Counted from the stretch's first letter, positions 29,744-56,181 are shown. The stretch: DNA of 59,919 bases from Bacteriovoracaceae bacterium (GCA_018649885.1 JABIHA010000006.1:1-59919), one strand, 5' to 3'. Notes: a model not told the origin generated them from the letters alone. Translations and numbers: made by a program.

Positions 29744-31387
29744 TTATTTTCTTGAAAGGGCCTCTTTAATGGCCTGGTAGGCATCGACTATTCCACCTGA
29801 ACTGCAGAGCTCTATCATCGTCCGATATGGATCGTGTGAATCACTTCCAGGAAGTTTCACTTCAAGAGTGCTGTAATCTCTAGACTCACCAATAAGATAG
29901 GTATTTTTTAACTGCAAATTAGTAAGATCATCAAAATAGCTTAATATCATGGCGCCTACTCCCGCCACTACAGCAGCAGACTGAGCGCTACCCGACATAT
30001 CGAAAATGCCTGATTTCCCTGCAGTAAGTGAGATAATTTGCTCTCCTGGAGCAAAGAGATTAACCCTTTTTTCTGCATAATTGCTACCGTTAAAAATGAG
30101 GTAGCTCCCTTTTTGTTTGTTATTAGATCCCACTGTGATCCAATTTGGATAAGAGCTTCCATTTGGAAAGTAATAGTTGCTACCTATATCAGAGGCACTA
30201 TCACCTGCTGCTTGAATAATTAACGCATCATTTTTTCCGTCAGAAAAAAGTGTAGATAGCTCGGTGTTGATTTCTTCATTGTGAGCTGAGAACTCACTTC
30301 CCGTGTCCAGCACAATAATATTTGCTCCCATACTCCAAGCATATTTTATAGCGTGAAGAAGATCCTTATCTCTGGTATCCCCTACCTCTGGTCTAACCCT
30401 AAGACCCATCAGCAACACTTTTTCAGAAATGCCATCCATTCCTTCACCATTTTCTCTAATGGCGCCAATGATACCTGCAAGGTGTGTTCCCCTCACAGGA
30501 TTTCCAGTTTCTATTTTCCAATTTCCGTAGGCCTTACTCTGCGTGAGATCATCGGGATCGTCACCAGTTACTATTTGCCTGGCATCGTAGGAGACATTAT
30601 AAGCGCGGTCTATTAGCTCCTTACTGGCATCAACTAAGCCTTTTAGATTGTCGAATGTTGTGTAGGTTTTCAAAAGCTCTAATAATTTTGCTTTGGCGGC
30701 CACAACATCTACATCTTCAGACTCAATGGATTCAATAGTTGCTTGGGTGAACTCTTCAAGTCCTAACTTATCTTTTAAAACTTTGCTTGAATCTGCATAG
30801 GTGGTTTGATCGGTGCTATAGGCATTGTACTTGTCTTCGATTTCTTTGAATTCACTTGCATACCTTGTTTGGGCCAGGGTGCAAATTTTAGTTTGATCTT
30901 CCGTGTACTTGGCATCAGCACAATCAACGCCTTGGTACACTCCATAAACGCGAGTGAGCGACAGGTTGTCAGTGGTAGAGTTAACAAGTTTGTCATTACC
31001 TAAAAAATTCCATCCATAGTAATCATCAATATGGCCATTAACATCATTATCAACGCCATCATTTTTTATTTCATCTTTATTGATCCAAATTCTATCTTTT
31101 AAATCAACATGTCCTATATCAAGTCCATCAGAGATAATGGCCACAACAACTTCTCTAGTCGCTTTCTTATCTTTTAACAATTCACTATAAGCGCGATCAA
31201 CTCCAGCGCCTTCAACTCCATCAAGAGATGAGTCTAAATTCATCCATTGTCCGGCACCTTGTCCACCACCACCTTGATCAATTGGGTCCTTTGGAAGTGA
31301 TTTTCTTATTGAGTTATCACAGCCACAAATAATGGCAGCAAGTAAGAGTAAAGTAGCTATTCTTATCACGATAATTACCTTGTCCAA
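29744..31387 (-). CDS. S8 subtilase-fold lipoprotein, catalytic triad degenerate
   Basis: Lipobox ICGC; HVDL..RIW.N..E...DG.DND.NG..DD.YGWNF scaffold; triad positions read IISDG, RGTHLAG, SGSAQSA. Confidence 0.85.
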   Translation of the reverse strand: MDKVIIVIRIATLLLLAAIICGCDNSIRKSLPKDPIDQGGGGQGAGQWMNLDSSLDGVEGAGVDRAYSELLKDKKATREVVVAIISDGLDIGHVDLKDRIWINKDEIKNDGVDNDVNGHIDDYYGWNFLGNDKLVNSTTDNLSLTRVYGVYQGVDCADAKYTEDQTKICTLAQTRYASEFKEIEDKYNAYSTDQTTYADSSKVLKDKLGLEEFTQATIESIESEDVDVVAAKAKLLELLKTYTTFDNLKGLVDASKELIDRAYNVSYDARQIVTGDDPDDLTQSKAYGNWKIETGNPVRGTHLAGIIGAIRENGEGMDGISEKVLLMGLRVRPEVGDTRDKDLLHAIKYAWSMGANIIVLDTGSEFSAHNEEINTELSTLFSDGKNDALIIQAAGDSASDIGSNYYFPNGSSYPNWITVGSNNKQKGSYLIFNGSNYAEKRVNLFAPGEQIISLTAGKSGIFDMSGSAQSAAVVAGVGAMILSYFDDLTNLQLKNTYLIGESRDYSTLEVKLPGSDSHDPYRTMIELCSSGGIVDAYQAIKEALSRK

Positions 31388-33675: not shown

Positions 33676-36276
33676 CTAAAAGAAGACTTCAAGACTTAGA
33701 AAGTTAAAGACTTTTTTGAGTAGAACAAAGCCCAGTGGTCGCCACTCTGCTTTTATCTTCCCTCTGCCAGTCATTCCAGCCCTTAAAACTTCTCCGGTGC
33801 CATGTTCACTATTAGAAAGAGTCGCCCTGGCCATAAAATACTTGTCTTTTTCTCCCTCAAGAAGAGGTCTGCCTTCACCGGCAACGATAGCAAGTTTTAT
33901 GTCGTCAAAGCTTGTATTGGGATAACTAAAGACTTTGAATTTCACATCCTGGCCACTCTTTACATATGTCACATCACTTTCTGGAACTTCAATTTGAACA
34001 TATACTTTTTCAGAGCTTGCCACTTTAATTAGCTCTTGCCCAAAATTGACAGGCATCCCAATTAAATTGTCGAGCTCAGAGCTAATAACAACTCCCGCGG
34101 TTTCACTTAAAATTTTTGATCTTCCAATTTTTTTATTTATCAGCTCTAGTTCCAGATCAATTGAATTCTTCTCAAACTCTTTTATTTTATAATCTGCAAT
34201 ATTCCCTTCACTTCTTTGTTTAAAAATTTCAGAGATCACTTTTTGTCTTTGGGCCACTTTCTTGGATTTTTCTAGTATCAAGTCTTGGATATCAAGCTGT
34301 GCTAAAACTTGACCTTTTTTCACATGCTGGCCTTCTTTTACAAACATTTCAGTAATTTTTCCTGCAGATCCACTATAGTAAGTCTTTGCCACAGGTAAAA
34401 TTTCAACATTAGCACTCACATTGTGCGGAACTTTCAAAAAGACCATGGCACAAACAAAAGCAATAGTACCTGTTATATAGGCCAAAAGCTTTGTTTTGGG
34501 CACTTCGGAGATATTCATGATTCCATAGTAAAATTTGTCTTTCATATGGGCCATGACATTTGTGGCCGGGATTGTATTATACAAAGAGGCATTTCTTAAG
34601 GCGACAGTAGACTGACCAATCAAAATTGATAAGAGCTCTGCCTTGTTTTCATTAATCATATCTTTGTTAACTGATTCCATTGAGATGATCCCCAAATCTC
34701 CTTGGTCATCTTTGAGTGCTACGGCCCAGAATGATTTAAGCTCTTTTTCTTCTAGATAGGTAACTAGCTCACTTTGGGCAACTTCACTAGACTTGTATGC
34801 TTCAAAGTCCGGAATATAAACCTCACCTTGCTGACTAGATATAAAATTGTGAAGTGCTTCTAATTTTTTATTTTCTTCAAGAGTTTTATCTATTACTTCA
34901 ATTCCACTAACAGACTTTAACTCGAACACACCTTCTCTTCCCCTTTTTTCCACAGAGATAGCAGCAAGTTCATAGGGAATAATATGAGATGATAAATTGA
35001 CCACTGACATAAGAACAGAGTCGAGATCAAGTGTTGAAGTGATTTCTTTACTTATTTCGATCAGGGCCGAGAGCTCTTTTGCCTTCTTCTCAGATTCAAA
35101 TAATTTCGCATTCCTTACATACATGGCAGAAGAAGCTGCAAATAGCTGCATTAACTCTAGGTCATCTTGATTAAATAATGTGCCTTTAGCTTCTTTATTT
35201 ATAATTTGAACAGCGCCAATTGACTGACCTTTCACACTGAGTGGGACTGTTATCATTGACTCTGTAACAAAACCAATTTTATTATCAAGCGCTTTTGAAA
35301 ACCGTGAGTCTTTGGAGCAGTCTTCCACAATAATGGGCTCTTTATTTTCAACAACCCATCCAACGATACCTACTCCTGACTTGATCTTAATGCCTATAAC
35401 CTTATCCTTCGTAGGACCTTCAGCCACATAACATTCAATTCCATCACCACTATCTTCATTTAACCAAACAGAGCCCACTTCTGCTTTTAATAGCGAGGTC
35501 GCCTTAGCTAAAATCATTCCCAGAAGTGTATCTAGATCCATTGTTGAGCTAAAGTCTTCATGAATTCCAATAATCGTTTTTATTCTATTATGAAGCTCAA
35601 CCTCTATTTTTTCGAGTCGTGAGGATTTAATATGCATCGCCGCCTGAGTACAAATATCCTCCAAGAGATATTTCTCCGACTGATTAAATTCCTTGTCACC
35701 TTTTTTATTTACCACTTGGAGAACACCAATGATCTCGCCTCGGTAAATAAGAGCAGATGAGATGAAAGACTTCGCACCAAGTTGTTCAACTTTATCATAG
35801 TGCAAGTTAATGCGGTCATCACTGGTTGCATCGAGAATTAATGACGATCTACCATTTTCTCCAACCCAGCCAATAATACCTTTTCCTGTGGGCACACTTG
35901 ACTTGAGTATATCTTTTTTCCCAGGGCCTGTGGCGAATTTACAAATTAACTCTTTTTGGTTTTCTTCCATTATCCAAAGTGAGCCACCTTCTGCACTCAA
36001 TGTGTCCACTACCATGCAAAGCATGCCTTCAATTATTTGAGATAATCCTAAGGATTCATCTTGAAATAGATCATTAATTCTGTGATAAAAATTTAGTGAT
36101 TTTTGAATATTAGAGCTATCACCTGTGGCCTTTAGCTCTTCTTCAAGTCCCCTTCCACCATGACTACTCAGAAGTTTTAGATGGGCCTTCTTGGAAACAA
36201 ACTCTTTAGGAACTTCTTTTTCTTCCACGCTCTTAAGATCAACTTCTTTTTTTTGAAATCTCTTTTTTAAGGCCAT
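33676..36276 (-). CDS. Triple-GAF domain plus HlyD-family membrane fusion protein
   Basis: Three GAF repeats (GKGIIGWV/GVGIVGWV; VVNK..F..SE, IINK..F..DD), one TM segment, lipoyl-like VKEGQHVKKGQVL, coiled hairpin, LRAGMTGRGKI. Confidence 0.9.
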   Translation of the reverse strand: MALKKRFQKKEVDLKSVEEKEVPKEFVSKKAHLKLLSSHGGRGLEEELKATGDSSNIQKSLNFYHRINDLFQDESLGLSQIIEGMLCMVVDTLSAEGGSLWIMEENQKELICKFATGPGKKDILKSSVPTGKGIIGWVGENGRSSLILDATSDDRINLHYDKVEQLGAKSFISSALIYRGEIIGVLQVVNKKGDKEFNQSEKYLLEDICTQAAMHIKSSRLEKIEVELHNRIKTIIGIHEDFSSTMDLDTLLGMILAKATSLLKAEVGSVWLNEDSGDGIECYVAEGPTKDKVIGIKIKSGVGIVGWVVENKEPIIVEDCSKDSRFSKALDNKIGFVTESMITVPLSVKGQSIGAVQIINKEAKGTLFNQDDLELMQLFAASSAMYVRNAKLFESEKKAKELSALIEISKEITSTLDLDSVLMSVVNLSSHIIPYELAAISVEKRGREGVFELKSVSGIEVIDKTLEENKKLEALHNFISSQQGEVYIPDFEAYKSSEVAQSELVTYLEEKELKSFWAVALKDDQGDLGIISMESVNKDMINENKAELLSILIGQSTVALRNASLYNTIPATNVMAHMKDKFYYGIMNISEVPKTKLLAYITGTIAFVCAMVFLKVPHNVSANVEILPVAKTYYSGSAGKITEMFVKEGQHVKKGQVLAQLDIQDLILEKSKKVAQRQKVISEIFKQRSEGNIADYKIKEFEKNSIDLELELINKKIGRSKILSETAGVVISSELDNLIGMPVNFGQELIKVASSEKVYVQIEVPESDVTYVKSGQDVKFKVFSYPNTSFDDIKLAIVAGEGRPLLEGEKDKYFMARATLSNSEHGTGEVLRAGMTGRGKIKAEWRPLGFVLLKKVFNFLSLEVFF

Positions 36277-36311
36277 TATTTATGTGCTCCTGTTCAATAT
36301 ATCTATCAATC

Positions 36312-36339
36312 TTTTCGGCGAAAGCTCGCAAAAACTTGA
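36312..36339 (-). promoter_or_regulatory. Putative sigma28/FliA-type promoter for the GAF-MFP gene
   Basis: Minus strand reads TCAAG-N15-GCCGAAAA, ~35 nt upstream of the ATG. Confidence 0.55.
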
Positions 36340-36407
36340 CTCTTTCCATCAGGTTAGGTTTTGCACTCTTTACCACTAAGTAACTTGAATTAATGAGTTC
36401 GATACTT

Positions 36408-37841
36408 CTAATTTACTGCTGATGAACTCAGAAGTGAGTTCTCTATTTTTTTGACTTCATAATATTTTTTTAGATAACTAACTTTTGTTTTGGTTAGCTC
36501 TTCGGTCAAAGCGGCCAAGCCATTTTGTTCTTCTACTAGCTCAAGAGAGGAGATTTTTCGAAGGTAATAGGCCTTCTCACGGTACTCTAGTGCAAGACTT
36601 TGCAATTTTATCTGCTCTTCTACTCGAGCTATTTTATCTAGCTCTTTGTAGAGATCAAAGCTTAGGGCCCCAATTTTTTGTAAGTCTTTGTGGTACTCAC
36701 TTTTTTCACGCTCTCTAAGCGAATTTAGTTTGGCCGTATTTGCAGTAACCTCGGCACTTGCAGCGTGGGCGCCAAAAGGATAAGAAAAATTGAGTGCTAA
36801 ACTCCAAGAGGGAAAATCAACTCCAAATATTTTATCTACTGACCTTTGCCACTTCTTAGCAATACTTGAGGCTGAACCTGTGGCTTCGATTTTTAATTCT
36901 GGGAGACTCTCCCTTTTGCCCTTATAAAGGTCCTCTTCTACTTCTTTGATCTCAAAACTAGTGGCAAGCAGCTTATAGCTCTTTTTCAAATCTCGGCGAT
37001 GTTCACCAAAACTGGGGAAATCATCTTCCAAAACAGCATTGTCAATTTGGGAGGCGTGAATTTGCTTATCCCCCCTATAAAGAATCAATGACAAATCAAT
37101 TAGAGCATTTTCAACTTTTACTTTTTGATTGAATAAAAGAGATCTTTTTTTGTATATTTGAGATTTTGTTCTAAGTAAATCAGTTTTGCTCTTCTTCCCT
37201 ACTTTCCACTTTCTCTTATCAAAATCGTATATTTTTTCACTATAATTCAAATCAGCTTTTCTCTTTTCGAGTATGGCCATTTCTTTCAGCACATCGAGAT
37301 AACTTTTTATGGCCTTGAAGGATTCATCATTGGCCTTATCGAATTTATTAAATCGATACCTTGAATATTTATTTTTGGCCTTATAGTACCTATTGGCCGT
37401 ATATCTTTTTCCAAATTCTTTTAAAAGAGGTACTTCAATCTTTATCTGAGCTGCTGACTGATAACGACTCTTAGCAAATGCAACTTTTGAGCTCGAGCGA
37501 ATTTTGAGCACTTGAAGACTGGCCTCCCAGTCAATTCCCCATATGATTTTATTTTTAATGCCTATGGAGGGACCTGTGGTTCTTTCTTCATAGGTCTTAT
37601 GATCATAGGTTAAATTGGCAATTGTTGTGTCTCTCTTAGCTTCATAGGCGGTGGTAAGGAAGTAGTCGAAATCTAGACTTGAGGCCTCAATTTCATTTTT
37701 AGCTAGCCTATGATCAAGCCTTGAAATTTCCACATCTATATTGTTTTTAAGACACAGCTCGATCACTTTCTGGATATCGATTTGAGGTAAATCCGCAGCA
37801 AATAGATTAAGGGCCTGGCCAAGAAGTAAAATTAATTGCAT
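36408..37841 (-). CDS. TolC family outer membrane protein (divergent)
   Basis: LKNNIDV, VPLLK.FG, GK.S..DLL, LPELKI, ISSLELV: two OEP-type repeats. Confidence 0.8.
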   Translation of the reverse strand: MQLILLLGQALNLFAADLPQIDIQKVIELCLKNNIDVEISRLDHRLAKNEIEASSLDFDYFLTTAYEAKRDTTIANLTYDHKTYEERTTGPSIGIKNKIIWGIDWEASLQVLKIRSSSKVAFAKSRYQSAAQIKIEVPLLKEFGKRYTANRYYKAKNKYSRYRFNKFDKANDESFKAIKSYLDVLKEMAILEKRKADLNYSEKIYDFDKRKWKVGKKSKTDLLRTKSQIYKKRSLLFNQKVKVENALIDLSLILYRGDKQIHASQIDNAVLEDDFPSFGEHRRDLKKSYKLLATSFEIKEVEEDLYKGKRESLPELKIEATGSASSIAKKWQRSVDKIFGVDFPSWSLALNFSYPFGAHAASAEVTANTAKLNSLREREKSEYHKDLQKIGALSFDLYKELDKIARVEEQIKLQSLALEYREKAYYLRKISSLELVEEQNGLAALTEELTKTKVSYLKKYYEVKKIENSLLSSSAVN

Positions 37842-37899
37842 AGAGTAAGTATACTCACTTTTTCCGGCTTCGCCTCACCTACCACACTTTGCCCAGCAC

Positions 37900-37936
37900 A
37901 AAAAAAAGGGCCCACGATTGTGGGCCCAGAAAAAAA
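37900..37936 (-). terminator. Rho-independent terminator after the acidic repeat-protein gene
   Basis: GGGCCCAC-GATT-GTGGGCCC hairpin (37908-37927); T8 follows on the minus strand. Confidence 0.85.
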
Positions 37937-37957
37937 CTTACTTGATTGGTTATTAAA

Positions 37958-40900
37958 TTATGCAGCGGCCTGTCCACCATCATCTATGTGATCACCATGA
38001 TCATGGTAGTCATCATGTGGGTGGTCATCCATAAAATCTGCACTCTCTGCTGAAATTACAAATGAGCCTTGATCTTCAAAGTACTGAGTGTCCTCTGGAA
38101 GATTAATAGTCATCTGACCAGTTGCTGAATACTCAAGTTCTTCTGGAAGCATATCATTTGCCATCTCATTGTCGAAATGAAGTGATCCAGTATCGGCGTT
38201 GTAATCAATTCCCTCAGGAAGATTTAATTCCATGCTTCCATTTTCAAGGATTTGATAGTCAGCGTCTCCTGGCAATTCATGTGGATGTGGACCCTCACCT
38301 TCTGGAAATGTTATAGAATGAGCATCTGCATTGTAATCAGTTCCCTCAGGAAGTGAAACATCGAGAGTTCCATCGGTGTTAAAAGTAAAATCATCTGGAA
38401 TTTCTTCAGCAAATGCTTCCATCGCCACATCGTGATCCATAGTCATTGTTCCGGCTTCAGCGTCAATAGCAACACCTTCTGGAACCTCAACAGTTATAGA
38501 TCCATCTGGATTATCAGAAACCCAATCTGGTCCATCGTGAGCATAACTTGGCTCAGGATTTTCATAGAAATCAGTGCAGTGATCAGGGATACAACATGAG
38601 CCGTCGTCACCGTAGTATGTGTCACTTGGTAGATCTACATGAAACTCACCTTCTGGTGTATATTCAACACAATCAGGAGTCATTTCACCAGTCCAATAAT
38701 TATCAACATGAACACATCCAGCATCAGCGTCGTAGTTAATGCCTTCAGGCAGAGTCACATCAAGTGATCCATCTGGATTGTAGTCGTAGTTAATGCCATC
38801 AGGAATCTCATTTGGATGAGGACCATCAGAACCTTCAGGGAAGTGTAACACTCCTGAAGCATCATCATATTGGCAGTCATTTGGAAGATTAATATCCATT
38901 GTTCCATCTGGGTTAAAACTAACATCATCTGGAATCATGTGATCAAAGTGCTCTGTAGCAAAATTAGCATCAAATTGTGCTTCACAATTATCTACATCAT
39001 ACTGAAGACCTTCAACTGCTGGAACATTAATTGATCCATCAACATTGTAATCCATAACATCACAGTGACAGCAATAGTCTGGCTCTGGATACTCCATGAA
39101 ATCAGCACAGTGCTCTGGCACATGGAACGAGCCATCATCGCCATACTCAGTACCACTTGGAAGATCCACAGTGAATTCACCAGCAGGAGAAATATCTACA
39201 TTGTCTTGGATAAGCTCACCAGTCCAATAGTTATCCACATGTAGCGTTTGCGCTTCGGCGTCGTAATTGATCCCTTCAGGGAGTTCAACTTTTACACTGC
39301 CATCCACAACTTCATAGTTAATATCGCTTGGGATATCTTTTACTTCAATATCACCTTCAGCAAAAGTCAAAGTGCCTGATGCATCATCATAAGTTGCATC
39401 ATGAACAGAAATATCCATTGTACCGTCAGCATTGATCATGACATCTTCTGGGATTTCTGATTGAAAGTCATTCATAAACTCATCGTATCCAAAAGAAACT
39501 GTCCCAGCTTCAGGGTCTACATTGTAGCCCTCTGGAGGATTACAGTCGTAGGCGCCATCAGGAGTGGTAGCGGCCCAATCACATTCGTGAACAAAATCAG
39601 GACAATCTTGTTCAATGAAATCAAGCTGATCTTGAGGAACATTAAAACTTCCATCTTCGTAAAATTCTGTGGCCTCTGGAAGAGCAATGGCAAGAGAGCC
39701 ATCTTCTGCTAGTGCCATATTGTCAGGAAGAAGCTCATTAGCACACTCATTGGAAAATTCAAGGCAATTTGAATCTGCATTGTAATCGATTCCATTATCA
39801 AGTTGCGCTGTATAACTTCCATCTGGATTTTCGTGGTAATCGTACTGGTCAGGAATTACATTTGGATCGAACTCAGCAGAGACTGTTAGAGCACCTGTAT
39901 CGTGATTGTAATCACATTGACAGTCATCAGGCATTGAGTAGTTCATTGTACCATCTTGATTAAACTCAATATTCTCGTCAATTGGAAGTACATCAGCGAT
40001 AGCACCGTGGTCAATAGTGGCAATTCCACCATCTACTTCACAGCCTTCAGGTACTTCAAATGTAGCAGATCCATCTGGTTGCCATTCACAGCAATCCATT
40101 TCACCAACATACTCTGGTGGAGGATTGTCCATGTAGTCCCCTGCAGCCTCAGAAAAGCAAAGAGAGCCATCATCGTTATACTCGACTCCTTCATGTGGCA
40201 GTTCACAACTCATGCTTCCATCGTCATGAAAATCTACATTGTCAGGACACTCCTCATTGAGGATTTCGTTAGAAACATTTATTGAATTTGTTTCAACATC
40301 ATATTCTACACCTGCATCAGGAAGAGGAATACATTCACTTCCATTTGCCATTGTAAAAGTTTCTACATCATCAGGCACTGGAAACTCTGCGCCCTCTGGA
40401 ATAACTAGTGCATTAAGGCCTTCGTCATAGCTTGATCCCTCTGGAAGTGGAACATCCATAGAGCCATCTACATTCATTGTCGCCCCTTCAACAGGGAGAA
40501 CATCGTTTACAGCTTCAGCTGTAAAGTTGGCCATTCCATCATCTATACTGACACCTTCTGGTGGCTGAATATCGTAGCTACCGTCGGCATTAGCAGTTAC
40601 CCAATCTGGCTCAGACCATTGACCTGGTTCCTCAAAGTCAGATCCAGCATCAGCTGAGTCATAAAACTCATCACCGTGTGAATCATCAATTTCATGATTG
40701 TCGCCATCATTGTACTCATCACCATCAGCATTTGCTTCAGCTTCTAATTGCTCAGTATCAGCAGCGTCGTCGAGGTATTGACCTTCGCCCTCTCCTTCCA
40801 TTGAAGGATCATGCGACTCATCGTGCTGGGTTTCACCACAATCACCGGAGTCGCCTTCCATTGGTTCACCTGCACCAACATCAGCAAGCTCAGCGGCTGC

Positions 40901-40996
40901 TCCTGGATCAATAATTCCTCCGCCTAGCATTCCGGGGGCAATTCTTTCTTCCAGCTTTTTACTTTTTAATTTGGGACTTTTCTTTCTCTTGGCCAT
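37958..40996 (-). CDS. Large hyper-acidic repeat protein with N-terminal LEERIAP (LEPR-XLL-like) leader; probable export substrate
   Basis: AGGAG RBS; MAKRKKSPKLKSKKLEERIAPG leader; five ~175-aa repeats built from ~40-45-aa DG[ST]-x5-PEG-x2-Y[DN] units; no Sec signal. Confidence 0.85.
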   Translation of the reverse strand: MAKRKKSPKLKSKKLEERIAPGMLGGGIIDPGAAAELADVGAGEPMEGDSGDCGETQHDESHDPSMEGEGEGQYLDDAADTEQLEAEANADGDEYNDGDNHEIDDSHGDEFYDSADAGSDFEEPGQWSEPDWVTANADGSYDIQPPEGVSIDDGMANFTAEAVNDVLPVEGATMNVDGSMDVPLPEGSSYDEGLNALVIPEGAEFPVPDDVETFTMANGSECIPLPDAGVEYDVETNSINVSNEILNEECPDNVDFHDDGSMSCELPHEGVEYNDDGSLCFSEAAGDYMDNPPPEYVGEMDCCEWQPDGSATFEVPEGCEVDGGIATIDHGAIADVLPIDENIEFNQDGTMNYSMPDDCQCDYNHDTGALTVSAEFDPNVIPDQYDYHENPDGSYTAQLDNGIDYNADSNCLEFSNECANELLPDNMALAEDGSLAIALPEATEFYEDGSFNVPQDQLDFIEQDCPDFVHECDWAATTPDGAYDCNPPEGYNVDPEAGTVSFGYDEFMNDFQSEIPEDVMINADGTMDISVHDATYDDASGTLTFAEGDIEVKDIPSDINYEVVDGSVKVELPEGINYDAEAQTLHVDNYWTGELIQDNVDISPAGEFTVDLPSGTEYGDDGSFHVPEHCADFMEYPEPDYCCHCDVMDYNVDGSINVPAVEGLQYDVDNCEAQFDANFATEHFDHMIPDDVSFNPDGTMDINLPNDCQYDDASGVLHFPEGSDGPHPNEIPDGINYDYNPDGSLDVTLPEGINYDADAGCVHVDNYWTGEMTPDCVEYTPEGEFHVDLPSDTYYGDDGSCCIPDHCTDFYENPEPSYAHDGPDWVSDNPDGSITVEVPEGVAIDAEAGTMTMDHDVAMEAFAEEIPDDFTFNTDGTLDVSLPEGTDYNADAHSITFPEGEGPHPHELPGDADYQILENGSMELNLPEGIDYNADTGSLHFDNEMANDMLPEELEYSATGQMTINLPEDTQYFEDQGSFVISAESADFMDDHPHDDYHDHGDHIDDGGQAAA

Positions 40997-41059
40997 GAGC
41001 GCGCTCCTTAAGTTTAGAGATTGTTAAATATCTTAAAAGATTTGTTTCCAGTTAAAGTG

Positions 41060-41088
41060 TTATCGGAAAATATAGACCAAAAACATGA
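41060..41088 (-). promoter_or_regulatory. Putative sigma28/FliA-type promoter for the acidic protein gene
   Basis: Minus strand reads TCATG-N16-TCCGATAA. Confidence 0.45.
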
Positions 41089-41216
41089 GCATGAAAGAAA
41101 AAAATAATTGCCTAATAAATGAATATTATGGAAGCTTTTTAATAACAAAACCTTCACTAAAATCGACCCTTTAAGTTTCCTTAATGTCGCTAAAAAAATC
41201 TCGTTTAATATAGATT

Positions 41217-42692
41217 TTATTTAGTGAAAAATACCTCTAAAAGTTGTCCACTTGACTTCTTGAATTGGTAAAAGTCCTTTAAAAATGACACTTTAGATTT
41301 TAAGAGTTGAAGCTCTGATTCCTCTCTCGATTGGAGGGCCTTTTTTAACTCGTAAAGTGTTGCTTTCCCGTTCTTGTATTTCAAAAAAAGTAACTTGTAC
41401 TTCTCTTTGTCAGCATCTACCACAACACCTAGGGCCTCGATCTTTTTCTCACCACTAATTAATAGATTGTGATTCTTTTTTAAGTCGGCCCTTGTTTGGC
41501 CCGCCAGCTTTGCTTTTTTCAAATTCTCTTGAACTGTTTTATAGGCATTCAGTTTCTTAGAAGAGTTAGCTGCATAACCCATTATGGAATACTCAAGGCT
41601 TGTGCCAATTGACCAAGAAGCGTACTTGGCGGCCCACACTTGATCGTGTGCCCTTCCCTGCTTGTGATTAAGCCCCTTGTAAGTCAAGCTGGCATCAAAA
41701 TCAAAATCTGGAAGCCTGTCCACTTTTGCATTTTTAAAAGCGGTTTTGTTTTTTCTAATGGATTTTTCAATCCTCTTAGACTCTTCTTTTCTGCTCATTG
41801 ATTTATCAACTAATATCGCCTCATCATTTTTTTTTGAAATGTCTGGAAGATCTTCTAGGACGGAGGTTAGGTCGTCATAATCAATCTCCCCTTGGTCTTT
41901 CTCACCAAAAGCGTGAAGTTCAAACTCCCCTCTTTTTGTGTTGTACTTTGTCTGGGTAGAAACTTTGCTATTAAACTTCTTTCTTTCATCACTACTTGCA
42001 TCTAGTTTATCAATTAATGAGGCCTTCCCCACGCGCCTTTTAGCACTCACCATTTCTAAATTTTCTATGGCATTTTTATGGGCAAGTGTTCTTACTTTTA
42101 AAGTAACGTGTTCCTGCAAACAATCTAAAAAGAGCTTTAGCCCTTTATCAACCTCTTTTACTAACTTTTCACCATGCTTGTGTTTTGCGATTTCACGATC
42201 GAGCTCAGCACTCTTAATACCTTTCTCAAGATAATCGGGAAAAAATGTTTCTAGTATGGGATGACTCATTGTTAGACCCAGTGAGGGCTCATGGGTTTTT
42301 CTTACTCTCCTAGAGGTTGAAGTGGAATCAACAACGTTATATGTATAGGGAAGACTTAGCTCAGTACCAAAGAAAAACTTCTTGGATAGTGTGGTGCTAT
42401 AGGTATCTGTTTTTGATTTTACAGAACTAGCTGCCCCGGTCGAGTCTAGTGACGAAGATGAAGGAGTGTCACTGTGATCTCTTGTGGCAGATAAGGACAG
42501 ATTGATATCGTAATCCCCCCTAGCGCTTTCAACAGAGGTGCCCTTTTCCTTCGTAGACATTTTGGAGATTTTTAAATCAAAATTATTTTCCAAAATAGCG
42601 CGTACTACGTCTTTTGTGTCTTGAATCTCACCATATGCATTTAAGCAAAATAAAACTGGAGCCGCTAAGGCCATGATTTTCTTTTTATCCAT
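41217..42692 (-). CDS. TolC family outer membrane protein
   Basis: Signal peptide; LENNFDLKI, ARGDYD, GKASLIDKL, RLPDFDF, YKNGKATLYEL. Confidence 0.88.
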   Translation of the reverse strand: MDKKKIMALAAPVLFCLNAYGEIQDTKDVVRAILENNFDLKISKMSTKEKGTSVESARGDYDINLSLSATRDHSDTPSSSSLDSTGAASSVKSKTDTYSTTLSKKFFFGTELSLPYTYNVVDSTSTSRRVRKTHEPSLGLTMSHPILETFFPDYLEKGIKSAELDREIAKHKHGEKLVKEVDKGLKLFLDCLQEHVTLKVRTLAHKNAIENLEMVSAKRRVGKASLIDKLDASSDERKKFNSKVSTQTKYNTKRGEFELHAFGEKDQGEIDYDDLTSVLEDLPDISKKNDEAILVDKSMSRKEESKRIEKSIRKNKTAFKNAKVDRLPDFDFDASLTYKGLNHKQGRAHDQVWAAKYASWSIGTSLEYSIMGYAANSSKKLNAYKTVQENLKKAKLAGQTRADLKKNHNLLISGEKKIEALGVVVDADKEKYKLLFLKYKNGKATLYELKKALQSREESELQLLKSKVSFLKDFYQFKKSSGQLLEVFFTK

Positions 42693-42761
42693 TAGAAAAT
42701 GATAGGGGAAAGCTAAAAAAATTCAATGCCTTGGCCTAAAATGTCCCATCATTAAACAAAC

Positions 42762-42789
42762 TAAATTTCTCAGGCCCTTTGCCCGATCA
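42762..42789 (+). promoter_or_regulatory. Putative sigma28/FliA-type promoter for the M50-MFP operon
   Basis: TAAAT-N15-CCCGATCA upstream of ATG 42827. Confidence 0.4.
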
Positions 42790-44923
42790 ATCAAGTCGGA
42801 TAGGTTCGCTTTATAAAAGTGGGAATATGGAAGACAAGTCAAAAGATTTTAAAAAATACCCTAAGCTTCGCGAAGATTTGAAGATCTCTCAAATTAAAAG
42901 AAGTGGAAAAGTTGGGTTTATCGTTAAAGAGCCAATGAGTGGTGAGTTCTATAAATTTGAATCTGAGGAATGGGAGATCATTGAGCTTTTTAATGGAGAG
43001 AACACCATTGATGACATGGTGGAAATCTACAATAAGAAACATAAACTCGACGAAATTGAGGCCCAGGCCCTAAGAGATTTTCAAGATGGTCTTGATGGTA
43101 TGAGTCTTTTAGTAAAATCAAAAGTCGACACCAATGTTATGCTCATTGAAAAAATGAAAGAAATGAGAAAGAGCCAACTTCTATCGAAGAAAGGTTCTAT
43201 TATGTATAAAAGATTCCCACTCGTTGATCCCGATAAATGGATGGACCGAGTCACTCCCAAAATAACATGGCTTTGGACTAAGTACTTTTTATTTTTCTCC
43301 ATGAGCGTCATGCTGGGAGCTGTTTTTATTATGATAAATAATTGGGCAGCTCTAGAAAATGGTACGAGAGAAATTTTCACCTTTAGTGAAATGTCTTGGC
43401 AAAATATGGCCATTTTATGGATTGTCGTCTATGCCACTATCGGAATTCACGAATTAGGACACGGATTAACTTGTAAATTCTACGGTGGTGAAGTCCACGA
43501 GATTGGATTTCTGCTGCTCTTTGGACAACCTTGTCTATATTGTAATGTTAACGATGCATGGCTGTTTGATAAAAAATGGAAGCAAGTCATGGTGACTATT
43601 GCTGGTGGGTATATTGAATTTTTCATTGGAGCAGTTTGTACCTATATTTGGTATTTCTCTAATCCCAATACCTTTATCAACCTCATTTCATTTCAAGTGA
43701 TGATCATTTGCTCAATCTCTACTATTTTATTTAACTTCAACCCGCTTATTAAGCTCGATGGGTACTACCTATTATCGGATTTTGTTGAAGTCCCCAACCT
43801 TAAAGAAGATTGTTTTACCTATCTTAAATACCTTGCTAAGAAATATGTTTTTAGAATGGATGAGCCAGATTTTGAGGCCACCTCCAGAGAAAAATTTATC
43901 TACTTCGCCTATGGTATTTGCTCATTTGGTTGGATGTTTGGGCTTCTTACTGGGCTATTTTTCATGGCACAGGGAATGCTTGTAGATTCACTAAACGAAT
44001 TTGGTGTCCTGATATCTCTTTTTATAGGATGGAAAATTGCAGGGGGATATGTTGATAGTATTAAAAAGTTTGGAGGGGATTTTATTATGAAAAACATCGC
44101 CTGGTTTTCTCAAAAGAAAAATCAATTCAAGGTGGGAGCAGGAGCAATTGCCCTGGTCGCCCTATTTTTCATACCCATTAAATATAAAATATACGGTGAG
44201 TGTGAGCTTGCCCCCAAGTATGTAAGAGTTGTCAGGGCAGAAACAGACGGCGTACTTACGAGCTGGAGTAAAGATGATGGAGACTTCATAATAAATGGTG
44301 AAACCATTGCAAATGTAAGCAACTTTACAACTAACTATGGCAGAGGCATTGCATCTCTGGCCTATGAAAAACAAATAGTGAAGCATAGAAAGGTTCTGAT
44401 AGATAATCCACAAGGTGCACAATCAGAGAAAAAAGAATTGGCCTCTAAAAAGTCAGAGCTCGAACTCAAAGAACGTGAAGTTCGCGGACTGACTCTCAAA
44501 TATCAAGGCCCCTATGAACTAGCGACGCTCAATTGCCCAGACTCAGCTAAAACCTTGGGAAGTTTTGTCAAAAAAGGTGATGAACTATGCCAGGTACATG
44601 GTGTTAAAGGTCTTCGCGCAAAAATTAATGTGACTGAACAGCAAGTTCGCTTTCTTGAAGCCGGCCAAGATGTTCAATTTAAATTATATTCTAAACCCTA
44701 TTTCACTTACTTTGGTAAAGTGAAAAAGATTAATCAAAGTACGAGAGCCGATCCCAAGAACCCCAAAAGAAAATTCTATGTTGCTGAGCTTTTAATTAGT
44801 AACCCGGGGGAGCTTAAGTCTGGCATGAGTGGGAAAGCAAAAATCATGGGTGAAAATGTTTCGATAATAAAATATCTAGGTATAAAAATAGTGGAAAACT
44901 TAAGAATGGATTTATTCTTCTAA
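42779..44923 (+). CDS. PqqD/RRE-like domain + M50 (site-2) zinc peptidase + HlyD-family MFP fusion (start probably ATG 42827)
   Basis: N-terminal PKLREDL...VKEPMSGEFY...FNGENTIDD...LL winged-helix pattern; HELGH; IAGG; FNFNPLIKLDGYY; TM helices; C-terminal FVKKGDELC and LKSGMSGKAKI. Confidence 0.9.
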   Translation: MPDQSSRIGSLYKSGNMEDKSKDFKKYPKLREDLKISQIKRSGKVGFIVKEPMSGEFYKFESEEWEIIELFNGENTIDDMVEIYNKKHKLDEIEAQALRDFQDGLDGMSLLVKSKVDTNVMLIEKMKEMRKSQLLSKKGSIMYKRFPLVDPDKWMDRVTPKITWLWTKYFLFFSMSVMLGAVFIMINNWAALENGTREIFTFSEMSWQNMAILWIVVYATIGIHELGHGLTCKFYGGEVHEIGFLLLFGQPCLYCNVNDAWLFDKKWKQVMVTIAGGYIEFFIGAVCTYIWYFSNPNTFINLISFQVMIICSISTILFNFNPLIKLDGYYLLSDFVEVPNLKEDCFTYLKYLAKKYVFRMDEPDFEATSREKFIYFAYGICSFGWMFGLLTGLFFMAQGMLVDSLNEFGVLISLFIGWKIAGGYVDSIKKFGGDFIMKNIAWFSQKKNQFKVGAGAIALVALFFIPIKYKIYGECELAPKYVRVVRAETDGVLTSWSKDDGDFIINGETIANVSNFTTNYGRGIASLAYEKQIVKHRKVLIDNPQGAQSEKKELASKKSELELKEREVRGLTLKYQGPYELATLNCPDSAKTLGSFVKKGDELCQVHGVKGLRAKINVTEQQVRFLEAGQDVQFKLYSKPYFTYFGKVKKINQSTRADPKNPKRKFYVAELLISNPGELKSGMSGKAKIMGENVSIIKYLGIKIVENLRMDLFF

Positions 44924-44941
44924 AAATTAGGGGTCATTACA

Positions 44942-45688
44942 ATGAAAACTATTTTACTGTCAGCTCTTCTACTTGCAACAAGTGCGTGGGCCTATAAAGT
45001 CACAGGAGTTCTCGCCGGAAAGCAAGAAGTGTTAATTAAGTCGAAGTCTCAAGGAGAAATTACCCAAATTGAGAAAAAAGAAGGCACTAAAGTACTTGCT
45101 GGGGATACTCTTGCGACAATTGATGACGAACAAGAACAAATTGAATGGAAACAAGCTGCTGAAGAGCTCAAGTCTGCCAAGGGTGATTACTTAAAAACCA
45201 AGGCACTCAAAAAATATGTTTCGCAAGAAGAGCTAATCAAAAAAAGGGATATTTATCTCAAGAAAAAGTCAATCTATGAACTCAAAGGCTACAACCTAAA
45301 AAATACTAAAATAACTTCTCCCATTGCTGGTGTTATTAGTAAGAAATTTATTAAAATGGGTGAAACGGTAAGCAACGGAGCAAAGACTTTTGAAGTCATC
45401 AATTCTGAAAACCTAATTATTGAAATTGATGTGCTGGCAGAAAAAAGTAAAAACCTAAAAATAGGACGCTTTCTAAGCTTCAGCTCTGATCTACATCCGA
45501 AAAAAAGCTTTAAGGCCAAAATAACCTTTGTTGCACCTACAATTGATAAAGCTTCTGGAACTACAAGATTAAAGCTGGAGCTTAAAAACAATGTTGTGCA
45601 CGGACGTTATGAGCTAAAGCCAGGTACTCTTGTCAATGTTCACCTTAAAACTGATCGTCTACCTGCAAGTAGTGCATCTTCTAAGTAG
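44942..45688 (+). CDS. RND/HlyD-type periplasmic adaptor (membrane fusion protein)
   Basis: Signal peptide; KEGTKVLAGDTL, ITSPIAGVI, PTIDKASGT, LKPG. Confidence 0.9.
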   Translation: MKTILLSALLLATSAWAYKVTGVLAGKQEVLIKSKSQGEITQIEKKEGTKVLAGDTLATIDDEQEQIEWKQAAEELKSAKGDYLKTKALKKYVSQEELIKKRDIYLKKKSIYELKGYNLKNTKITSPIAGVISKKFIKMGETVSNGAKTFEVINSENLIIEIDVLAEKSKNLKIGRFLSFSSDLHPKKSFKAKITFVAPTIDKASGTTRLKLELKNNVVHGRYELKPGTLVNVHLKTDRLPASSASSK

Positions 45689-45690
45689 AG

Positions 45691-46167
45691 TTAGCGATTG
45701 AATTTAAGACTGTGTGGTGATTTAAAACGATTGTACCGAAGAGTGTGTTTCTTATCTGCTTTAGAGGCCACACCTCTACCCATTTTCTTTTCCATGCACG
45801 AAATGTGAAGGGCAGGCTTACCTCTAGTCCAACTATTTTCTTTAAAGTAGAAATCATAAGAGAAATTATTTAGGCCCATGCCATAGCCGTGGCAATAACT
45901 TGTGGCCCACGTTTGCATTTCAGAGAAAAAGCTCCTACTTTTTGGATTGAGAACTCCATCACTACACCAGGCCATAAAACTGCCTTTGTATTTGTGTGAA
46001 TTGGCCCAATAACCAACAACTTCAGAGTCTCCTTTTTCACAAAGAGAGCCGGCAAGACCCACAATTTCTTTTTCTATATTCACGATATGATCATGTAGTT
46101 GAACTGAGCCTGACCACGAAAGCGGCGAGCACAAGAAAATGAAAATACCTATTCGAACTCTCATCAT
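45691..46167 (-). CDS. Hypothetical exported Cys-containing protein
   Basis: Signal-peptide-like N-terminus; four spaced Cys in the mature part. Confidence 0.6.
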   Translation of the reverse strand: MMRVRIGIFIFLCSPLSWSGSVQLHDHIVNIEKEIVGLAGSLCEKGDSEVVGYWANSHKYKGSFMAWCSDGVLNPKSRSFFSEMQTWATSYCHGYGMGLNNFSYDFYFKENSWTRGKPALHISCMEKKMGRGVASKADKKHTLRYNRFKSPHSLKFNR

Positions 46168-53860: not shown

Positions 53861-54619
53861 TTATTTGGATTTGGCCACCACTCGCAACTTGGCCTTTAAT
53901 TTCAAAGCAAGAGGAGCAAAGGAGATATTAAAGCCTGGACCTTTTCCCCTACCACCGCTCTGGTCTGCCATGGCCATTTCTGCTCCAAATACTGGAGGTC
54001 CCCGGCGATCAGGCTCTAAGAATTCAGAAATTAGTGTATATTTATCAAAAGTTTTACCGGCGGCCCTCAAAATAGAATCTATTTTGACCCTGGCATTTTT
54101 TAAGGCCTGAGAAAAAAGAGTATTGAGAACCTGCTGTCTTTTCTTATATGAGAGTTTGTGCTCTAGCTGGCTCATTCTCACACCTTCAATTTCTATCACC
54201 TCAGATAATATTTTTCCAAGGCGTTCTAAGTCAGCTATTTCAAAATAAAAAGATTGAGACAAAGCAAAGCCCAAATCAACAGACTTCCTATTCCTCCACT
54301 CCTTCCAAGGATTGATAGAAAAGTGAGAGGTTTTTATTTGATCATTTTTAATCCCATTTTTATCTAAAAGAGAATAAATGCGCTTTTTGGCCCTATCGTA
54401 GTCTTTTTTGATCATATCTTTGCTCTTTTTCTTAGTTTCATAAGAAAAATGCCCTACCCAAAGATTGGCAAGCTCAGAAGTTTCTGCCTCGCCCACCACT
54501 TCAATTCCCGAAGCCGTCTGTGCTAAAGCCTGTCCAGTGTACTCAATTAGCAAAAAGAAAGTTAAGAATCTCGTCGCCTTTAAAAAATTGAACATCTCAC
54601 TCTCCCTAATTACTTTCAC
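53861..54619 (-). CDS. SIMPL/DUF541 domain exported protein
   Basis: Signal peptide; IEVVGEAE, GIKNDQIKT..FSINP, ALKNAR.K. Confidence 0.75.
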   Translation of the reverse strand: MKVIRESEMFNFLKATRFLTFFLLIEYTGQALAQTASGIEVVGEAETSELANLWVGHFSYETKKKSKDMIKKDYDRAKKRIYSLLDKNGIKNDQIKTSHFSINPWKEWRNRKSVDLGFALSQSFYFEIADLERLGKILSEVIEIEGVRMSQLEHKLSYKKRQQVLNTLFSQALKNARVKIDSILRAAGKTFDKYTLISEFLEPDRRGPPVFGAEMAMADQSGGRGKGPGFNISFAPLALKLKAKLRVVAKSK

Positions 54620-56181
54620 TGCTCTCTAAGTTTGAATTTTTTGCCACACAACCAAACCAACCACAAGACCGGAATCCCTATAACCGTGGTGAATAGGAAG
54701 AATCCCTGGTATCCAATGGCATCCACAAAAGTTCCAGAGTAGCCCCCTAGAATTTTTGGAAAAAGTGTCATCAGTGAAGTGAAGATCGCATACTGAACAG
54801 CAGTGAAGGAAACATCAGTTAAGCTGGATAAAAAGGCCACAAAAGCAGCACTGGCCATTCCGGCAGCTAAGTTATCAGCAGAGATAACAAGATAGAGCAT
54901 GGGTAGACTGGGTCCCACTTTTGCTAGGATCATAAAAAGAATATTCGTGGCCGATGACAAAAGAGCTCCCCACCACAAAAGACGAATAACCCCAAAGCGC
55001 GTTGTCAGAAGTCCACCAAGGAAGCCTCCTAACAAGGCCGTTACAAATCCAAAGGTTTTAACAACGGCAGCGATTTGAATCTTAGTAAAACCAAGATCCT
55101 GATAAAAAACATTGGAAATCACTCCCAAAACGATATCTGAAACCCGGTACCAACCTATTAGTAGTAAAAGTAAGATTGCTAAGTTTTTGCCATAACGATC
55201 AAAAAAATTCTGGATGGGATCCAGATAGCCTTCTTTAACCATGTCCGTATTGACCAAACCAGACTTCCCTAGCCCTATAGCAAAAGCTGCAGCAATTGCT
55301 ATGGCCGCTCCAAAACGAAAGACTCCCACAATAAATCCAGCAAGGGCCTTGTTGCCTACAGATTCGCTCAAGGATTTTGTGAGATCACTTGCAAGCTCTG
55401 CGCTTAGAAAAAAGACAGTGGCAAAACAGCCCGCAATCAAAAGAAATAAAAAGAAAAAAAACGTATAATCCGTTGTGGAGTGAGACGTTTCACGAGCTCT
55501 TGTGACCTTTGGTTCTGGGCGAACTAATGTAGTGATCATCCCCACCACCATCAAAGCTGCCATAATCAGATAAGTCCATTTCCAGGCATCATAGGAATAA
55601 TTAGCTTTAGTAGATCCAAAATATTGGGCCAAAAAAAGTGCTCCGGCTCCAGAGACAAGCATCGCAATACGATATCCTGCGATATAGGTTGAGGAAAGAA
55701 TCGCCTGCATCTCACTGCCGGCTGACTCAATTCGATATGCATCGATGACAATATCTTGAGTAGCAGACGAAAAACCTAACATTACAGCTGCCAAGGCCAT
55801 ATACGTGACAGCATTCTCAGATGACTTTGGGTCAATCATCGCCATCCAAATAATGGCAATGGCCACAGATACTTGTGAAAATATAAGCCAGCTTCTTCTT
55901 CTCCCCAGTAAATTGGTTAATATGGGAAGCGGAAGCTTGTCTACTAAGGGGGCCCAAATAAATTTAAAAGAATAGCCAAGCGCAGCCCAACTAAAAAATG
56001 TCACGGCCGACCTCTCAATCCCCGCTTCCCGTAACCAAATAGAAAGGGATGAAAAGATCATAAGAATAGGAAGTCCAGCAGAGAAGCCCAGAAAAAGCAT
56101 AGTTATATTTCGAGAATCTGTAAAAACGTCAAAGCTTTCGCGCCAAGAGCGCGTTGAGTTTTCAGCAGTTAGGTTGGCCAT
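54616..56181 (-). CDS. ampG: AmpG-family muropeptide MFS transporter
   Basis: LGFSAGLP, KFIWAPLVD, GRRRSW, SATQDIVIDAYRIE, FTAVQYA. Confidence 0.93.
   Translation of the reverse strand: MANLTAENSTRSWRESFDVFTDSRNITMLFLGFSAGLPILMIFSSLSIWLREAGIERSAVTFFSWAALGYSFKFIWAPLVDKLPLPILTNLLGRRRSWLIFSQVSVAIAIIWMAMIDPKSSENAVTYMALAAVMLGFSSATQDIVIDAYRIESAGSEMQAILSSTYIAGYRIAMLVSGAGALFLAQYFGSTKANYSYDAWKWTYLIMAALMVVGMITTLVRPEPKVTRARETSHSTTDYTFFFFLFLLIAGCFATVFFLSAELASDLTKSLSESVGNKALAGFIVGVFRFGAAIAIAAAFAIGLGKSGLVNTDMVKEGYLDPIQNFFDRYGKNLAILLLLLIGWYRVSDIVLGVISNVFYQDLGFTKIQIAAVVKTFGFVTALLGGFLGGLLTTRFGVIRLLWWGALLSSATNILFMILAKVGPSLPMLYLVISADNLAAGMASAAFVAFLSSLTDVSFTAVQYAIFTSLMTLFPKILGGYSGTFVDAIGYQGFFLFTTVIGIPVLWLVWLCGKKFKLREQ

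Follow-up and report, generated by a model that had tools for sequence, protein, structure and literature searches.

What drives a large protein over the inner membrane without an ATPase of the ATP-binding cassette (ABC) or SecA type? This question is posed by a cluster of six genes at positions 33676-45688 of a stretch of DNA from a Bacteriovoracaceae bacterium (GCA_018649885.1, JABIHA010000006.1:1-59919), which represents one complete contig of 59,919 bp and is hereafter referred to as the window. The parent assembly comprises 5.4 Mb and is 92% complete, and the best protein matches of the window are labelled Bdellovibrio, Oligoflexia or Bdellovibrionota. The cluster codes for an acidic protein of 110 kDa, a predicted M50 zinc protease fused to a periplasmic adaptor, two further adaptors and two TolC-like outer-membrane proteins. 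In our reading, the cluster forms an export system that is complete in itself, spans the envelope and is dedicated to a single substrate, the acidic protein (hereafter the cargo); we assign a probability of roughly 60% to this reading.

Gene organization of the cluster

Calling and translation of open reading frames (ORFs) located the six genes in two divergent operons. An earlier note on this DNA had described six contiguous genes for three membrane-fusion proteins (MFPs, termed adaptors in the following), two TolC proteins and one acidic non-Sec protein, and all of them were recovered at the same positions by the ORF, Pfam and NCBIfam analyses. The minus-strand operon runs in the order TolC-like protein 2, cargo, TolC-like protein 1 and GAF-adaptor, and the plus-strand operon comprises the M50-adaptor fusion (hereafter the M50 fusion) followed by the short adaptor:

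33676..36276, minus strand: GAF-adaptor, that is, three predicted GAF domains, a transmembrane (TM) segment and an adaptor (MFP), 866 aa (Pfam, predicted fold)
36408..37841, minus strand: TolC-like outer-membrane protein 1 (TolC1), 477 aa (Pfam OEP)
37908..37927, minus strand: terminator-like hairpin with T8 (consensus scan)
37958..40996, minus strand: acidic repeat cargo, 1012 aa, 110 kDa (translation, composition)
40916..40996, minus strand: cargo leader, residues 1-27 (conservation across loci)
41217..42692, minus strand: TolC-like outer-membrane protein 2 (TolC2), 491 aa, with signal peptide (Pfam OEP)
42693..42826, no strand: divergent intergenic region between both operons (gene layout)
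42827..44923, plus strand: M50 fusion, that is, a predicted recognition element (RRE) of the kind known from peptides that ribosomes synthesize and that are modified after translation (RiPPs), an M50 zinc protease, TM segment and adaptor, 698 aa (Pfam, NCBIfam, predicted fold)
44942..45688, plus strand: short periplasmic adaptor (MFP), 248 aa (NCBIfam, Pfam)

A genome search indicated that the export system is single-copy in its own genome. Because the same six-gene set was found again in other Bdellovibrionota loci, the arrangement is not a product of chance.

The cargo and its conserved leader

The cargo is rich in acidic residues (D+E 25%), contains 17 N-x-D-G-S/T-like motifs and 26 Cys residues, and begins with MAKRKKSPKLKSKKLEERIAPGMLGGG. 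Its leader, residues 1-27, consists of a basic stretch followed by KKLEERIAPGMLGGG, and inspection of the N-terminus and the segments of the protein did not reveal a hydrophobic signal segment. Past the leader (37958-40915, about 985 residues) we counted 2 Lys and 0 Arg, which corresponds to a K+R content of 0.2% versus a genome median of 12.1%; with the leader included, the cargo has the lowest K+R content of the 2,220 six-frame ORFs of at least 300 aa in the genome. The Pfam analysis of the cargo yielded a marginal match to pAdhesive_11 only, with no RTX family among the matches, and the leader segment gave no Pfam match at E≤10.

Cargo homologues encoded beside M50 fusions range from 604 to 2079 aa, and their N-terminal sequence KKLE[ED]RIAPGMxGGGxxDPG is almost unchanged. 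Over a core of 22 residues the leader is 64-91% identical in seven other Bdellovibrionota loci with TolC genes, 50% identical in the Planctomycetota locus L005 and 41% identical in the reduced locus L085. The C-termini are not conserved, and the conserved element is N-terminal. A C-terminal ...AA tail considered as a shared feature was present in just 4 of 10 cargo proteins and was dropped, and the global identity of the mature regions (32-47%), which is inflated by composition and length, was not used.

Locus L085 (G302:C5, 7432-13489) represents a second, reduced system in one genome. It encodes a 604-aa cargo with the leader RRLEDRIAPRMVGTE, a 640-aa M50 fusion and a GAF-adaptor, with neither TolC nor a short adaptor alongside.

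Co-occurrence of the leader with the M50 fusion

For the link between cargo and machine, 401 Bdellovibrionota genomes were searched separately with an RRE-M50 profile and with a leader profile of 44 positions. Strong matches to the RRE-M50 profile (E≤1e-146) were obtained at 6 places in 5 of these genomes, and the leader profile likewise matched at 6 places (E 5e-8 to 1e-24) in the same 5 genomes, which is a one-to-one pattern and, as related genomes are not independent, not a statistic. The earlier note had named such a co-occurrence of M50 fusions with LEERIAP leader proteins as a check of its model. Each of the 6 leader ORFs (604-1590 aa) lies on the same contig as the M50 gene at a distance of 1.7-7.6 kb, and one genome contains two machines and two leader ORFs. 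Among the fetched Bdellovibrionota loci, four contain the same six genes, and a fifth is reduced to cargo, M50 fusion and GAF-adaptor. The sole leader match elsewhere (G267, E 0.004, a 74-aa frame) was weak and was taken as chance, and weak M50 matches in G005 (E 1e-43) and G270 (E 1e-38) belong to other proteins, of smaller or greater length, for which no leader match was obtained.

Moreover, 5 Planctomycetota genomes that bear a module with an M50 fusion were tested for a degenerate DNA pattern of LE[ED]RIAP. Three of them contain a single copy each, inside the module locus, with 0 hits for the reversed-pattern controls. The cargo is the sole LE[ED]RIAP-type ORF in its own genome. Leader-type large proteins were detected within 10 kb of the module in 15 of 81 loci by means of a small leader profile, and the related N-termini VEELEERIAPA, LEDRKLPAP, LEQRIALTA and LEGRRLLTA are found near the module on proteins of 529-2235 aa. 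A search of a set of 5.8 billion proteins with the leader only returned 3 matches, all of them unnamed proteins, and all 3 reside on contigs that agree in length with contigs bearing M50-fusion matches. Because leader and M50 fusion co-occur one-to-one, we take the cargo to be the substrate of this machine, an assignment that we regard as very probable on the strength of this genomic pattern.

In Isosphaeraceae (L021, L023 and L078; cluster c28), leader-type proteins of 1281-1508 aa carry a subtilase (S8) domain, and a cargo therefore need not be an adhesin.

The M50 fusion and its predicted recognition of the leader

The longest ORF of the M50 fusion starts with TTG at 42779, and the ATG at 42827, which is likely the true start, gives the 698-aa form on record. 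Its parts are located on the plus strand as follows:

about 42863-43102: predicted RRE
43205-44092: M50 core
43448-43462: HELGH motif
from about 44123: adaptor

The protease part matched Peptidase_M50 (PF02163) with 29.6 bits versus a cut-off of 27.2, and HlyD_3 was matched as well. In alignments of 26 and 34 homologues, the motifs HExxH and NxxPxxxLDG were invariant. The NCBIfam models NF041824, a daptide HExxH intramembrane metalloprotease (9.3e-46, 156.7 bits), and NF058609, YydH-LiaK (5e-13, 49.3 bits), were matched under their cut-offs of 300 and 225, respectively. An AlphaFold (AF2) model of residues 1-430, calculated from 34 aligned homologues (pLDDT 89, pTM 0.83), contains strands at 19-25, 28-35 and 40-45 followed by three helices, which together span residues 19-91, and then a helical membrane core. 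A Foldseek comparison with the PDB matched this core to the site-2 protease (S2P) of M. jannaschii (3b4r, E 1.7e-4) and to SpoIVFB (8vjm). The N-terminal domain matched TbiB1 with leader (5v1u/5v1v, target TM score 0.62-0.72, probability 0.99-1.00) and furthermore lasso B1 (6jx3), PqqD (5sxy), TigE, TruD and the heterocyclase 4v1t; the matches to TbiB1, lasso B1, PqqD, TigE and TruD had probabilities of 0.96-1.00. At the level of predicted fold, the N-terminal domain is thus of the RRE/PqqD type, as had been proposed in the earlier note. Motifs, polytopic membrane core and S2P fold together identify the protein as a putative site-2-type protease with predicted catalysis, and its adaptor part resembles EmrA/MacA.

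The RRE-M50 part was modelled in complex with the first 45 cargo residues, both given as alignments. The complex obtained a score of 0.69, whereas the best of 3 controls scored 0.00. Of 157 solved complexes, 116 attain this mark, and of 215 mismatched pairs, 2 do so, a calibration that is only rough since custom alignments were supplied; in part, the favourable score may stem from resemblance to RRE:leader complexes of known structure. Between runs, at least 62% of the contacts coincide, and the partner pLDDT is 53 or higher. In the model, leader residues 7-31 contact the RRE strand 40-45, helix 77-92, H208/E209/H212 and residues 229-245 and 308-314. L15 packs on strand 40-45, R18 and I19 lie against residues 238-245, and the part of the interface formed by H208, E209, H212 and residues 308-314 corresponds to the zinc site. 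The leader is hence predicted to be bound by the RRE and led into the zinc site, so that the capture of the leader claimed in the earlier note is upheld as a predicted binding. We consider it probable that the RRE reads the leader, and removal of the leader at the M50 site appears moderately likely.

Adaptors and TolC-like proteins

In the GAF-adaptor, Pfam recognizes two GAF domains (8.8e-36) as well as HlyD_D23 (5.9e-16) and HlyD_3. The third GAF domain (residues about 401-577) gave no Pfam match and is visible in the full-length AlphaFold model only (pLDDT 83.8). Structural alignments with VIA-align relate residues 229-577 to the tandem GAF-A/B of PDE5A (Z 24.3, root-mean-square deviation 12.1, 327 aligned), residues 52-224 to the GAF domain of PtsP (Z 22.3, root-mean-square deviation 2.1, 157 aligned) and residues 593-857 to MacA (Z 17.7). 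By predicted fold the protein thus carries three GAF domains, the number given in the earlier note, and a single TM-like segment at residues 598-616. On the minus strand its parts are:

about 35605-36123: GAF1
35077-35592: GAF2
34546-35076: GAF3
33676-34497: TM segment and MacA-like adaptor

Across the aligned part of the fold, GAF2 shares 28% of its residues with the cAMP-binding GAF domain of Lcd1 (5w10) and with the GAF domain of an HD-GYP protein (4mcw); this likeness in sequence may serve as a lead on the ligand.

The short adaptor matched the NCBIfam model RND_mfp (7.3e-34, over the cut-off of 94.9) and Pfam HlyD_D23 (5.8e-22), and has a signal-peptide-like N-terminus without a Cys lipobox. 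Within their own genome, the two TM-anchored adaptor modules (M50 fusion and GAF-adaptor) have their closest relatives in one another. TolC1 matched Pfam OEP with 2e-09 and 37.9 bits and TolC2 with 2.4e-21 and 76.9 bits (cut-off 22), and TolC1 additionally matched NCBIfam TIGR01844 (4.5e-13) under its cut-off. Both proteins are paralogues that represent mutual best matches in the genome (9.4e-14), and both are retained in other six-gene Bdellovibrionota loci.

Conservation of the module

Of 7,999 candidates that were scored, 2,312 matched the M50-fusion family, for which at least 594 loci in genomes were confirmed, and the module is spread over Planctomycetota, Acidobacteriota, Gemmatimonadota, Verrucomicrobiota, Bdellovibrionota and others. 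The locus counts given here refer to 80 loci kept from about eight phyla and were obtained by profile searches on stop-to-stop frames, since greedy ORF calling hides genes under antisense ORFs in high-GC loci. The neighbourhood was scanned with Pfam for 66 clusters with at least 2 members (81 representatives), and the 570 singleton clusters were covered by our own profiles and a count of TM segments.

The M50 fusion is present in 80/80 loci, and a GAF-adaptor homologue accompanies it in 66/80; in nine of the 14 loci without one, the contig breaks off within 2.6 kb. Of the 80 loci, 52 have a short adaptor, 20 have an adaptor with a fused WD40 propeller, and 70 have either one. All three parts, GAF-adaptor, adaptor and M50 fusion, occur together in 64/80 loci, usually in that order on one strand. 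TolC-like genes are adjacent in 8/80 loci.

Several variations were observed in these neighbourhoods. In Gemmataceae-type loci (L068:7294-9453 and 19 others, cluster c3) the middle adaptor has a C-terminal WD40/TolB-like beta-propeller. Directly upstream of the GAF-adaptor, an unnamed family of 117-185 aa (c8) is encoded in L008, L012, L025, L033, L056 and L068, and a STAS-domain protein or DUF3467 is found upstream of it in c51 (L066, L076) and c5 (8 loci); none of these small upstream genes (c8, c51, c5) is present in the window. In L037 and L053 a gene upstream of the module encodes a DUF11-repeat protein with an N-terminus of the LE[SG]R..LL type, which lies beside a BBP7 beta-barrel porin and a short SecA. 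In Planctomycetota, where TolC genes are not adjacent, the BBP7 porin might act as the outer-membrane partner instead.

Search for a motor

Pfam analysis of the cluster and of 46 further window ORFs did not reveal an ABC, RND or MFS pump in or beside the cluster; the findings were limited to a uridine kinase with a weak P-loop overlap and, at a distance of 9 kb (54616-56181), an MFS gene. Our own profile of the ABC nucleotide-binding domain (NBD) detected no ABC ATPase on the 59.9-kb contig and 52 ORFs elsewhere in the genome, which served as the positive control. The claim of the earlier note that a pump is missing from the cluster and its surroundings is thus borne out. The profile search was employed because a regular-expression screen overlooks a true ABC ATPase in L042. 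Across the homologous loci, where a conserved ABC or RND partner would have spoken against the model, ABC NBDs were present in 3/80 and adjacent in 1 (L013), ABC-2 permeases lie 5-7 kb from the module in four loci, and no recurrent RND- or MFS-like polytopic protein was observed across the 80 loci.

With PF07517, only the canonical SecA was found in the window genome (G000, an 862-aa frame) and in the four related module-bearing Bdellovibrionota genomes; a 27-bit SecA_DEAD match on contig C73 of G000 is RecG. Since the five genomes are 77-95% complete, it is unlikely that a secondary SecA is missing from all of them as a result of assembly gaps. DUF3467, a frequent neighbour of the module elsewhere, is likewise absent from all five.

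Proposed export route and alternatives

We envisage that the cargo would be made in the cytoplasm with a basic leader of 25-30 residues and without a Sec signal. The KKLEERIAP core would add a strand to the cytoplasmic RRE on docking, the Gly-rich part that follows it would reach into the M50 zinc site, and the protease would cut off the leader. The polyanion, which is almost free of Lys and Arg, would then pass an inner-membrane assembly to which M50 fusion and GAF-adaptor contribute their TM segments, enter a periplasmic tunnel of three different adaptors and exit via the two TolC-like proteins, and the three cytoplasmic GAF domains would gate the system upon a small ligand. For the inner membrane we favour passage via the TM core of the M50 fusion and the adaptor anchors, by analogy with EpeP as a precedent, and on balance we expect that the three adaptors and two TolC-like proteins carry the protein out. 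Cleavage, conduit, export direction, stoichiometry and gating are parts of the scheme that we infer.

In some Sec-independent insertions it is the membrane potential that moves acidic segments outwards, and in RTX proteins cation binding and folding outside act as a ratchet. As a chain almost without Lys and Arg would not be held back, we propose that the membrane potential acting on the polyanionic chain, together with folding outside the cell, would supply the energy, a speculation that is drawn from the composition of the cargo. By analogy with RTX proteins, the N-x-D-G-S/T motifs could bind cations, fold outside and act as a ratchet.

In addition to the limits of the complex model given above, several points weigh against this reading. 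The energy source is its weakest part, in a lineage without a module-linked ABC ATPase or secondary SecA, and site-2 proteases are not known as protein conduits. In 66 of 81 loci no leader protein was found within 10 kb. The Pfam PqqD model does not match the N-terminal 138 aa of the M50 fusion at E≤10, so that the RRE assignment rests on the fold. Neither the cargo nor any of 13 leader segments or proteins matched an NCBIfam model (E≤10 or 0.1), LEPR-XLL included, with short models being easily lost to HMMER filters. A low K+R content is found in the cargo of SecA-bearing lineages too (1.3-5.5%) and hence does not single out a motor-less mechanism, and the cargo of L085 has a K+R content of 9.9%. 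Furthermore, a short SecA is adjacent to the module in 5/80 loci, all 5 Planctomycetota genomes tested encode an extra SecA of 647-672 aa besides the canonical one, and the Bdellovibrionota form may depend on the housekeeping SecA or on an unlinked partner. The notion of export without an ABC transporter, as advanced in the earlier note, therefore needs a qualification: with respect to the genomes surveyed, 'ABC-less' is general to the module, whereas 'ATPase-less' is limited to the Bdellovibrionota form, as a secondary SecA accompanies the module in other phyla.

The main rival is a two-step route, in which the housekeeping SecA/SecYEG or an unlinked translocon serves the inner membrane, RRE-M50 is only a leader peptidase or receptor, and the adaptors and TolC act from the periplasm. 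MacAB-TolC exports the enterotoxin STII from the periplasm. In line with such a route, one of the adaptors is a soluble periplasmic protein, all 5 Bdellovibrionota genomes retain a canonical SecA, and the module passages of an earlier study describe a pairing with a cut-down SecA in other phyla (PMC4452313). However, the leader is without a hydrophobic core, the predicted place of docking is in the cytoplasm, at RRE and M50 site, and a SecYEG link was found in no locus surveyed; we deem the two-step route unlikely, though worth keeping in mind. An ordinary type I secretion system with an ABC transporter encoded elsewhere would account for the adaptors and TolC, which are parts of such systems. 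The assembly is 92% complete, and this genome holds 7 ABC_membrane-type exporters, none of them beside adaptors or TolC, which likewise tells against our reading. The rarity of ABC NBDs in the homologous loci argues against this explanation, as does a conserved signal that is N-terminal and not C-terminal in a protein in which no RTX repeat was found. The largest candidate exporter, of 760 aa on contig C4, has no C39 domain and lies among unrelated genes without adaptor or TolC, and it was rejected as a partner. Taken together, we consider type I secretion improbable.

The cluster could also serve regulated intramembrane proteolysis or the efflux of small molecules or peptides, in which case the acidic protein would merely be processed or its N-terminal peptide exported. 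GAF sensor domains are present, M50 relatives serve the maturation of RiPP peptides (PMC10885120), and genes for STAS proteins, sigma-54 activators and ECF sigma factors occur near some loci. However, these regulator genes show no conservation from locus to locus, the cluster retains two dedicated TolC genes, and large proteins that are hypervariable, rich in repeats and poor in K/R but share a conserved leader show the pattern of surface proteins with a secretion signal, so that we give this explanation very little credit. Export of the cargo by a dedicated system is the reading that we prefer. That it amounts to six-gene secretion of a new type, by which a 100-kDa protein would cross both membranes without any ATPase in a leader-read, M50-cut and GAF-gated manner, is a tentative proposal that we ourselves regard as rather doubtful.

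Relation to known systems

As a computational prediction, the architecture has already been published. In an article of 2015 (PLoS One, PMC4452313), Kamneva, Poudel and Ward described a conserved gene neighbourhood in which a secondary SecA_DEAD protein is accompanied by GAF-HlyD, Peptidase_M50-HlyD, HlyD/biotin-lipoyl and sometimes OEP proteins and an ABC transporter is absent, and suggested that the SecA-like protein serves as ATPase and that the M50 protein forms the pore. The words 'leader' and 'Bdellovibrio' occur 0 times in that article, and no substrate of the module is named; its abstract and module passages name no RRE, the term itself not having been searched. According to these passages, that module contains the same three proteins as the one studied here, with no ABC transporter in either, and is defined by a secondary SecA_DEAD, whereas none was found in the window locus and genome, and the locus contains two TolC genes and a cargo. 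The earlier note knew of no mechanistic characterisation of this architecture; a computational description existed already, the idea of M50 as a pore included. The cargo, the leader and the reading by the RRE, together with the motor-less two-TolC form, are new as far as our literature searches reach. A naming of the substrates of the module was not found in the literature searched.

Type I secretion is exemplified by HlyB-HlyD-TolC and, for large adhesins, by LapBCE. The window system has in common with it the adaptor and TolC and an acidic, repeat-rich, co-encoded substrate without a Sec signal, and differs in being without an ABC transporter at the locus and in having three distinct adaptors, of which two carry large cytoplasmic domains. 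In type I secretion the signal is C-terminal and uncleaved, with RTX repeats, whereas here the conserved signal is N-terminal and probably cleaved, and no RTX was found. Peptidase-containing ABC transporters (PCATs) handle double-glycine leader peptides. Like these, the window system would have a leader peptidase built into the export machine and a Gly-Gly element in the leader, but the protease is a predicted M50 zinc and not a C39 cysteine protease, there is no ABC module, and recognition would be by an RRE. By eye, the LE[ED]RIAP leaders and the related N-termini resemble the 'LEPR-XLL' tag of NCBI annotation; as none of them matched the NCBIfam model, we do not assign them to it. LEPR-XLL is mentioned in a passage of a 2026 preprint (bioRxiv 10.64898/2026.03.19.712371).

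The M50 leader peptidases of RiPP pathways include YydH/EpeP, the daptide HExxH protease and TglG/TmoG, and EpeP has been suggested to cleave and export alike (PMC10885120). They represent the nearest sequence families to the protease part, with scores under the family cut-offs, and have the leader-guided logic in common with it. In contrast to these enzymes, which act on peptides, the substrate here would be a 1012-aa protein, and the protease is fused to a periplasmic adaptor with TolC genes alongside.

Expression signals and surroundings

The divergent intergenic region contains a single promoter-like match in a consensus scan, on the minus strand at 42726-42699. The hairpin behind the cargo gene has 8 pairs, 7 of them G-C, and a T8 tail, and begins 31 nucleotides past the cargo stop codon, before TolC1. 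It was the strongest of the 14 sites in the terminator scan, in which 9.3 sites were expected from shuffled sequences. Judged from its sequence, a terminator at this position would permit high expression of the cargo and lower expression of the machinery. In the seawater metatranscriptome X1, contigs of the RNA library are identical to the window and extend over the cargo gene from 37947 to at least 40774; as an RNA library can hold DNA, this indicates presence of the sequence in the library and is no proof of transcription. Most machinery genes were without contig cover in X1, which is uninformative since contig depth cannot rank genes, and the RNA runs X2-X4 contained next to none of the sequence words of the window.

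According to Pfam, one flank of the cluster encodes MAPEG, GNAT, hydrolase and S8 peptidase proteins, and the other a metallophosphatase, a ceramidase-like protein and LexA. An ORF of 158 aa at 45691-46167 (minus strand) has a signal-peptide-like N-terminus and a 29-nucleotide overlap with the start of the next gene; it gave no Pfam (E≤10) or NCBIfam match and has no counterpart in the related loci. Further away, a xanthine-dehydrogenase-type cluster (2894-10398, minus strand) encodes the molybdenum-cofactor-binding, 2Fe-2S and FAD subunits and XdhC, and further a xanthine/uracil permease, an aminotransferase and a transferase of the MobA-like type. The window also contains two S8 subtilases (12956-14302 and 29744-31387, both minus strand) and an 862-aa PLD-like protein (17634-20222, minus strand), which fit a predatory or degradative lifestyle.

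Implications

The window holds the most compact complete version of the module seen, with six genes, one cargo, its own TolC channels and no motor gene found. If the model holds, RiPP-style leader recognition would be joined to protein secretion, and the system would represent an additional type of secretion.

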